A stretch of 16,248 bases of DNA from Candidatus Caldarchaeum sp. (lineage in GTDB: Archaea; Thermoproteota; Nitrososphaeria_A; Caldarchaeales; Caldarchaeaceae): the NCBI GenBank assembly GCA_038844785.1, contig JAWBRA010000032.1:1-16248 (forward strand), in the 5' to 3' direction. A model generated the notes under the pieces. It did not search any database and was not told the origin of the DNA. It was given only the letters and a program-made list of their open reading frames with translations. The translations under genes were made by a program, and so were the position numbers. Shown here piece by piece: positions 15,933-16,111 of this stretch; position 1 is the stretch's first letter, and each line of letters starts with the position of its first letter.

Positions 15933-16111
15933 GGGAGGGTTTGGCTGGAGGCAACCAACCAGAACAACATCAAGAAACCCATAAGAAAGGCCGGCTAATA
16001 CGTTAAGGACCGTATCCTATAGGATACGGTTATTACCATGAGCACCGGCCTTTCCAGAGGGGTTTTTCCCTGCTGTTCAGGCCGGCGCCTCCAGCCTTTC
16101 GCGGGTCTCCC
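15933..16111 (-). ncRNA. Long structured RNA (nested rod-like hairpin with a 13x13 internal loop); candidate IS110/IS1111-type bridge/seek RNA
   Basis: Nested complementary pairs: 15943-15952/16087-16096 (10 bp), 15954-15960/16080-16086, 15962-15969/16071-16078, 15975-15980/16060-16065, 15985-15994/16045-16054 (10 bp), and a terminal 22-bp perfect palindrome at 16009-16030. At least six positions pair as G-U only on the minus strand. Confidence 0.7.

Follow-up and report, generated by a model that had tools for sequence, protein, structure and literature searches.

Recombinases of the IS110 family, which are built of a RuvC-like domain, a coiled coil and a helical C-terminal domain, carry a DEDD catalytic tetrad and, in the C-terminal domain, a catalytic serine (SG motif); in the IS1111 group of this family the RNA lies 3' of the gene. 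The bridge RNA of IS621 is said to have been described in 2024 by the groups of Durrant and of Hiraizumi. Among OMEGA systems (TnpB or IscB with omega-RNA) and homing endonucleases one finds transposon-encoded, RNA-guided proteins with a guide that matches the site of the element itself, and elements that lie within their recognition site. According to the excerpted text of a 2026 preprint, the IS621 geometry is one of left-sense and right-antisense guides around a fixed core, and bridge-RNA mining required PF01548 together with PF02371. The excerpts of Faure et al. (2025) describe TIGR-Tas as tandem spacers on opposite strands in stem-loop units, mined through Nop and IS110 profiles, and in those of the TIGRFinder preprint (2026) TIGR mining began from known tas loci. 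Nop5 is not descended from any archaeal IS110 clade in the data of Vaysset et al. (2024 preprint). Here we analysed a stretch of 16,248 nucleotides (nt) from Candidatus Caldarchaeum sp. (contig JAWBRA010000032.1; the window), in which a rod-shaped RNA is encoded on the minus strand behind a protein gene. We propose that this rod is very probably the guide RNA of an archaeal mobile element, and that its single symmetric internal loop encodes both halves of the insertion site.

To compare the two strands of this loop (A and B) with the DNA beside each copy, each copy's loops were scanned against its own locus, which yielded 44 9-mers while 13.5 were expected from the loops of other copies; one strand occurred in sense upstream of the element and the other as its reverse complement downstream. 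Since overlapping words inflate this count, we relied instead on junctions mapped independently through uninterrupted sites in related genomes, namely G058 for five copies of genome G026 (for three of them also G010), and G345 and G231 for a subfamily-A copy on contig C12 of the host genome. Exact matches were scored within 16 nt of the junction on either side. In all six copies with both junctions mapped, 9-10 nt at the end of the left flank repeated one loop strand, and the right flank started with a 9-11-nt reverse complement of the other, while loops from the other five copies, used as controls, gave a longest junction match of 4-8 nt. As an example, in the uninterrupted site CAGGGTTAAATAATGC loop B recurs as CAGGGTTAA, and loop A, in reverse complement, as AAATAATGC. 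The guides share a core, on which they overlap and which derives from conserved 3' motifs in the loop. In BLAST maps the overlap between the flanks is 9 nt for L075 and 3-6 nt for the other five copies. The flanks matched in this way comprise genes, unrelated to one another, and intergenic DNA. For a copy on contig C11 the empty-site search was uninformative, its two flanks being far apart in relatives, and a clean empty site was not found for the tRNA-linked copy on contig C9, where the G345 contigs break at q4884 and q4895, near the anticodon stem-loop, the loop-B match being at q4889-4897. Compared by eye with the tRNA-Gln genes downstream of three copies, the loops of family A showed no match. 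Donor recognition by this same loop was considered and rejected, as the joined ends share by hand count 2-4 of 7 nt per half with the target.

The copy in the window follows the same rule. Its left junction falls past the contig end, and its right junction was placed at about 15874, where homology to an uninterrupted locus in genome G207 starts. The reverse complement of loop B, AATACGTTAAGG, agrees with AATACCTTAACG at 15861-15872 in 10 of 12 positions, at most 2 nt from the junction, and this is the only such match outside the RNA gene. In G207 the empty site reads ...AAGCTCAAG/GTAATACATCAACG, the slash marking the junction, and the sequence just before it, GCTCAAGGTAATA, is 12/13 identical to loop A; some mismatch is expected, since the G207 flank is only 73% identical. 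The module at 15875-15918, between the RNA and the junction, also follows six other copies.

Both strands of the loop were of equal length in 17 of 19 parsable rows (13/13 in 14 rows, 15/15 in two and 17/17 in one) and differed by one nucleotide in the other two; seven rows misaligned at the loop were left out of this count. At the edges of each strand a short stretch is conserved. The core of 6-9 nt inside it varies, and the cores are wholly different even among copies whose remaining sequence is 96-100% identical. Three copies of the closed genome G026 agree at 100% identity throughout ~1150 nt, yet their cores are unlike (TCACGAT, GCATTAT and AGCTTAT on one strand; ACGGTA, CAGGGT and CTAACC on the other). 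We also observed that in the G026 subfamily (L075-L077, L081 and L082) each loop strand reads AUGAC-N6-7-U(U/A)(G/A)GAC. The UGAC-like motifs at both ends of the loop could form tandem sheared G-A pairs and recall C/D and C'/D' kink-turns; the window's subfamily is without them.

To evaluate the structure of the RNA itself, both strands were folded. A 206-nt segment comprising the rod and its flanks gave -102.4 kcal/mol on the minus strand (z -8.68, with 0 of 200 shuffles as good) and -86.9 kcal/mol on the plus strand (z -6.18), and the 154-nt rod alone gave -93.8 versus -76.2 kcal/mol; 8 of its 60 pairs are G-U. Four more helices lie between P1 and the guide loop (Table 1), and a lower internal loop (GGGAAAAA / UUCUUGA in the window) is conserved across subfamilies. 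A scan of the whole window against Rfam returned no match at gathering score, and at E<=5 only miRNA-precursor-like hairpins far below threshold, so that no known RNA family was matched. An earlier sequence-only reading of the window had described six stems, an internal loop and a capping hairpin, all of which we recovered at the same places; it had noted at least six G-U wobbles and proposed selection on a minus-strand structure, in agreement with the eight wobbles counted in the rod, the better minus-strand fold and the covariation described below. It had further suggested that the internal loop guides DNA recognition and that the architecture, unlike the two-loop IS621 RNA, has a single loop; the six mapped copies and the window copy match their own flanks, and one loop is hypervariable while the second internal loop is conserved. 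Its oligo-U tract is indeed present, as a U6 run at 15923-15928, but probably marks the end of the RNA and not that of the element, because the repeated unit reaches 15919 and the inserted DNA about 15875. Metagenome contigs part from the window sequence at 15918/15919, and the tail is likely both the RNA 3' end and the end of the repeated unit.

Table 1. Features of the element and its insertion site in the window
Feature	Position	Strand	Basis or remark
Right target half GTAATACCTTAACG, chromosomal DNA	15861..15874	(-)	Homology to the uninterrupted G207 locus
Further inserted DNA, ~44 nt, from RNA end to right junction	15875..15918	(-)	G207 homology starts at 15874
Conserved single-stranded 3' tail AAACCCUCCCCUUGUUUUUUCCUU with U6 run	15919..15942	(-)	Homology among copies ends at 15916-15919
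Rod-shaped guide RNA (putative), 154 nt, six stacked helices	15943..16096	(-)	Fold, covariation, covariance model
P1 helix	16087-16096 with 15943-15952	(-)	GGCUGGAGGC paired to GCCUCCAGCC
Loop strand B CCUUAACGUAUUAG, 14 nt	15995..16008	(-)	Predicted guide complementary to right target half
Apical hairpin ACCGUAUCC-UAUA-GGAUACGGU, capping the guide loop	16009..16030	(-)	Fold; 9/9 pairs with compensatory change
Loop strand A UGCUCAUGGUAAUA, 14 nt	16031..16044	(-)	Predicted guide of same sense as left target half; hypervariable among copies
3' end of the element's protein gene, last 41 codons and stop	16121..16248	(-)	Open reading frame 16121-16246, 5' open

Eight further places in the host genome (1.74 Mb, 57 contigs) resemble the window's final 329 bases with 81-92% identity, and many contigs, the window's own among them, break off within this repeat. 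Side-by-side comparison distinguished three subfamilies, which have a common closing stem and tail and differ in their inner helices, built to the same design. A covariance model constructed from nine subfamily-A copies scored 198.7 bits at the window copy (15921-16096) and produced 38 matches in the host genome, which we counted as 28 sense loci and 10 antisense echoes. In other genomes the RNA was found directly after or overlapping the stop codon of the open reading frame (ORF) in 19 of 29 loci, and wherever it was matched the gene's strand scored higher. Pairing was then counted over 26 sense-strand matches and 51 base pairs: 90.0% of cells were paired, compared with 72.4% in shuffled alignments and 29-44% when partners were slid, and compensatory changes on both sides were present in 41 of the 51 pairs across the six helices, including 12/12 pairs in helix 5 and 9/9 in the apical helix 6. 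None of the five measures was reached by any of 500 shuffles. Taken together, the covariation, the constant place after the ORF and, above all, the match between loop and flank support a guiding role for the loop.

The contig of the window ends inside the protein gene, of which full-length copies exist elsewhere in the genome; the intact copy on contig C14 encodes a protein of 284 aa (P0001). At E<=0.001, P0001 had only 97 matches among 1.84 billion cluster representatives, and a profile search of 5.8 billion proteins returned 137. Among the 120 matches listed, none has a Pfam domain and all are unnamed or hypothetical, the organisms named being Candidatus Caldarchaeum, Calditenuaceae, Nitrososphaerota or Thermofilaceae. 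The gene is carried by 30 of 401 sampled genomes of the phylum, host genome G000 included, and most carriers have several copies; leaving the host aside, it was present in 29 of 56 genomes of families f1-f3 and in 0 of the 344 others. Families f1-f3 together with f32 (0/3) make up every 'same order' genome among the rows listed, and in this sample the gene was thus confined to one archaeal order. The metagenome runs that contain the window are labelled hot-spring. Several gene copies have one in-frame stop (G000:C24 ~24600 [L032], C9, G082, G026 and others), which in the C24 copy lies inside the KSD-NDA motif; these are probably decaying copies.

To determine what the protein resembles, sequence and structure comparisons were performed. 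Pfam and NCBIfam searches with P0001 gave nothing useful, an RNase HII match at E 0.029 being taken as noise, and PDB sequence searches with P0001 and the family profile at E<=10 retrieved no Tas complex and no useful chain, a match to the Mediator Med4 coiled coil (E 0.024) being rejected. The structural comparison used a stored ESM Atlas model of the homologue P0112 (pTM 0.78), which is 50% identical to P0001. This model aligned over 263 residues (1-282) with a bacterial cluster annotated as 'putative IS110 family transposase' at a TM score of 0.73 by query, in which 100% of members carry PF02371 and 99% PF01548, and it also aligned with viral clusters carrying PF02371 on 28-89% of members, which may or may not represent Tas proteins. 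A profile of 127 family sequences matched one of 118 Nop5 proteins over 193 columns with P 0.00024 (probability 43.5; reversed control 0.082), the best of the three pairs tested, IS110 against Nop5 giving P 0.051; this similarity to Nop5 is suggestive. Within the family, D7 (119/119 non-gap), D30 (124/127), D54 (125/127), K94 (127/127) and D99 (127/127) are invariant or nearly so, D7, D54 and D99 falling on three places expected of the acidic tetrad and D30 being an additional Asp, and no conserved serine or tyrosine was found in the C-terminal half among the 127 sequences, Y236 being present in 85/127. Thus, the IS110-like recombinase that the sequence-only reading had considered possible is borne out at the level of the modelled fold, whereas the Pfam models and the catalytic serine speak against it. 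We read the protein as a probable RuvC-like, coiled-coil and Nop-like member of the IS110-TasR-Nop5 fold class that would stand outside the defined families: it is IS110-like in fold and not a member by sequence criteria. The host has a single canonical Nop5, 96% identical to a Candidatus Caldarchaeum protein, and PF01798 matches that Nop5 only. The gene for this Nop5 has a tRNA-Gln gene ~700 nt upstream, which itself follows a subfamily-A copy of the element (G000:C33 13220-13891 versus 14604-14969), a proximity that is probably coincidence.

The copies thus display a conserved RNA structure linked to a gene, with a hypervariable loop that corresponds to the junctions, and a mechanism can be outlined around these observations. 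The guide RNA would belong to an archaeal mobile element of ~1.5-2.5 kb and would be transcribed together with, or just after, the ~285-aa gene; since the loop is strictly symmetric, the protein probably binds the rod as a dimer. Each loop strand would act as a 9-11-nt guide composed of the variable core and the first 2-4 nt of the conserved 3' motif, one equivalent to the top strand of the left half, so that it would pair with the bottom strand, and the other complementary to the right half's top strand. The guides would overlap on a family-specific core, TT in one subfamily and TATT/AATA in the window's, where the DNA would be cut or exchanged, and the element would land between the half-sites with a 3-6-bp repeat. 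Catalysis may depend on D7, D30, D54 and D99 within a ribonucleoprotein (RNP); this binding and the chemistry of insertion are what we infer.

The inserted DNA measures 1509-2446 nt and extends past the U tract of the RNA by 35-782 nt among copies (44 nt in the window). Its start points vary, one copy beginning 308 nt inside the consensus, and one copy has ~75 nt of foreign sequence. We also observed a left module of ~370 nt starting TTTTTTCCTTAATATTCTG, which occurs in ~38 places of the host genome (e.g. C11 9614-9987 and C12 41384-41753) and lies upstream of the gene's promoter-like TTTAAAG and start codon (MAESGEE...). It outnumbers the gene, several kinds of passenger module follow it, and in short derivatives it is joined directly to the 3' part of the RNA (C55 2398-2767, C2 48447-48824 and C22 25198-25590).

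Several results count against the proposed guide RNA or against its placement with IS110. The RNA is deduced here from DNA sequence and a predicted fold, and as to transcription, the one contig found in RNA library X17 belongs to a related copy (~90% identity) and may derive from DNA. The alignment behind the pair counts was fitted to the model structure, which favours structure, and 10 of the 29 loci in other genomes had no RNA match with the first model. In all six mapped copies the first and last inserted bases differ and are not conserved, and the element occurs in both orientations relative to the guide frame: the upstream sense half is given by loop A in three copies (L075, L081 and the window) and by loop B in four (L076, L077, L082 and L083). 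There is one variable loop, compared with the target and donor loops of IS110; with no second variable loop and with ends that are not conserved, the proposed guide RNA does not account for donor recognition. Either the donor is recognized in a way that was not found, or insertion needs no defined ends, and the latter fits an RNA-guided cut followed by repair-driven copying, as with homing endonucleases. With regard to the protein, neither of the two IS110 Pfam models reached its cut-off. PF01548 (DEDD_Tnp_IS110) gave no match at gathering score for P0001 or any host-genome copy, with weak matches in the expected register in 5 of 24 members (E 0.0098-0.1; 12.8-14 bits versus a cut-off of 29), and PF02371 (Transposase_20) was found neither among the 25 families listed for the 24 members nor in host-genome copies. 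By hhalign, the shallow 24-sequence family compared with five archaeal IS110 proteins gave a non-significant E of 0.34, and the 127-sequence profile aligned collinearly with 95 IS110 proteins over 208 columns at a weak P of 0.011 (reversed control 0.64). This weak alignment sets KTARND on KTDRVD, KTxxxD on the IS110 motif KTDxxDA, and K/R-G opposite the QSG that carries the IS110 serine. The position of the first D of KTDxxDA, the third acidic residue of the expected DEDD set, is D in only 14/127 sequences and A in the window's subfamily, and the two columns opposite the catalytic serine are S in 6/127 and 22/127. Because of the Pfam failure, the lack of a conserved serine and the non-conserved ends, it is the loop that can be said to behave like the target loop of a bridge RNA, whereas IS110 recombinase identity and IS621-like recombination are candidates only.

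Two explanations of how the element moves have to be weighed. If it were a true IS110-type bridge recombinase, for which we see somewhat less than an even chance, the variable loop would bind the target, the lower loop or the conserved loop motifs would recognize the donor, and a circular intermediate would recombine conservatively at the common core. The fold-level match to IS110, the core encoded in both guides and constant within a subfamily, the conservation of the lower loop across subfamilies and the left-sense, right-antisense geometry shared with the excerpted IS621 text are all in agreement with this, but no serine is conserved, the lower loop shows by eye only a 7-nt resemblance to one right end, and a defined donor is hard to reconcile with ends that differ in 6/6 copies, 3' extensions of 35-782 nt, a 5'-truncated copy and both orientations. 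Such variable ends, flanking DNA carried along and double orientation would instead suit an RNA-guided nuclease resembling a homing endonuclease, as TasR or TnpB might act, an explanation that we hold possible though on balance doubtful. Here the RNP would cut the uninterrupted site, repair would copy or capture the element with adjacent DNA, and the occupied site, its halves separated, would be immune. The element does sit within its own recognition site, the acidic residues are invariant while the serine is absent, and tandem guides on opposite strands are found in the TIGR-Tas excerpts; however, homing needs neither the 3-6-bp junction repeats nor a fixed core, and leaves the first entry of a newly guided copy into a new site unaccounted for. 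With respect to insertion chemistry alone, IS110-like strand exchange thus falls a little short of an even chance, RNA-guided cleavage with repair or homing is a tentative second candidate, and other routes take the rest.

That the loops do not guide at all is improbable. After insertion, the RNA gene might have acquired a copy of flank sequence, or the RNA might be an antisense regulator or terminator of its neighbours, and the near-perfect matches in 6/6 copies, unexpected if guides vary randomly and take the best available site, lend this some weight. However, such copying would require two separate patches, one in inverted form, to be placed at set positions within a conserved fold, the matched flanks are a mixture of unrelated genes and intergenic stretches, and the geometry is the one found in two known guide systems. 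As the repeated unit ends in a long hairpin with oligo-U behind it, one might also think of a common terminal inverted repeat, or of an intrinsic terminator, belonging to an insertion sequence and without RNA function; we find this hardly credible in view of the strand asymmetry (8 G-U pairs; -93.8 versus -76.2 kcal/mol), the covariation in six helices, the conserved symmetry of a loop with hypervariable cores, the loop-to-junction rule and the position of the hairpin, which is not at the end of the inserted DNA.

A third subfamily, in which loop A starts with CAAU and loop B ends with CAAUG, was observed beside tRNA genes. In four copies, L072 (G000:C9 13625-13932), L040 (G345), L028 (G243) and L065 (G000:C1 103502-103765), a string made of the final 9 nt of loop A and, behind them, the initial 9 nt of loop B in reverse complement reads as nt 21-38 of a tRNA, whose gene lies 40-60 nt downstream of the copy. 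By script the matches were 14, 15, 14 and 15 of 18, respectively; when the intron was removed by hand they became 17/18 for Lys-UUU, 16/18 for Met-CAU and 16/18 for Arg-GCG, and Ala-UGC stayed at 15/18. Five of the nine copies of this subfamily have no match or match a different tRNA. The tRNA genes beside these copies have a similar hairpin intron of ~30 nt, AAAATATTAC..GTAATATTTCTGCA, between nt 24 and 25 (L072 ~1853-1882, L040, L028, L073 and G000:C47 ~2075-2102). This intron lies inside the half-site predicted for loop A and would break the target, so that the D-arm intron may protect the tRNA gene. By eye, the 3' part of the intron resembles the start of the element's left module. At some left ends the first bases look like a tRNA gene from its 5' end as far as the anticodon loop, e.g. 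GGGGCCGATGGATCAGTCTGGAAGATCGTCCGCCTTATAA (G000:C14 ~29600-29700, C12 ~41750-41800 and C2 ~83100-83190), which points to an ancient insertion in the anticodon loop of a tRNA, carried along afterwards. A tRNA on C47 called by ARAGORN, run with introns allowed, with a long 'intron' (0.6-1.6 kb class) was discarded as an artefact, since the call spans a truncated element and the real intron-bearing tRNA. Five further calls with 'introns' of 0.8-1.6 kb (C14 35863-37536, C17 2275-3766, C17 27051-28599, C13 31480-32570 and C27 17870-18793) all lack the element's gene.

RNA-guided insertion (IS110) and cutting (TIGR-Tas) are new and sought-after tools, and according to the excerpts cited above both were mined through Pfam or Nop-domain profiles; the present family escapes the IS110 Pfam models. 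It indicates that a single symmetric loop can specify an insertion site of 14-17 bp and be re-targeted copy by copy within one genome, in thermophilic archaea and without the IS110 serine, and it offers a test bed for donor choice without a donor loop and for the kinship of IS110, TasR and Nop5. A bolder view, which we consider unlikely, is that a living archaeal lineage between IS110, TasR and Nop5 has been sampled here, consisting of a mobile RuvC/Nop protein that lacks the serine and has one symmetric RNA with two guides, and including a tRNA-targeting subfamily with D-arm introns as possible immunity. Vaysset et al. (2024) considered the archaeal clade that was the source of C/D-box RNPs to be extinct or unsampled; if that bolder view were true, the family would be of the kind they had in mind. 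A full-text literature search found no description of such RNAs or elements in Caldarchaeales, and supplementary tables, which lie outside such a search, may list the proteins.

Compared with OMEGA systems, the element has no TnpB or IscB domains, and its guide lies inside an RNA loop and is not read from the flank. With Nop5 and the box C/D small RNPs it has in common the domain order and two guides in one symmetric internal loop, but its protein has no PF01798 match, its acidic residues are invariant and its target would be DNA, on both strands. No RUGAUGA/CUGA boxes were seen by eye in the window RNA, and no Rfam C/D family matched it. In the excerpts on TIGR-Tas, TasR is likewise a protein with RuvC and Nop-type parts, the stem-loop RNA can overlap the gene's 3' end or lie beside it, and two spacers of ~9 nt address opposite strands of one contiguous target of ~18 bp, the guides here being 9-11 nt. 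In contrast to TIGR-Tas, there is one RNA unit per gene (one sense match per copy) and no array, the unit lies within a multi-copy mobile element whose spacers match its own insertion site, and the guides overlap by 2-4 nt. As in IS110 and IS1111, a small element consists of one gene and one structured RNA, which here too is 3' of the gene; around a core that is short and fixed, the 5' strand of the internal loop is identical to the left target half and the 3' strand complements the right one. The element differs from IS110 in that its ends are not conserved and it occurs in both orientations, and in that each copy within a genome has guides of its own.

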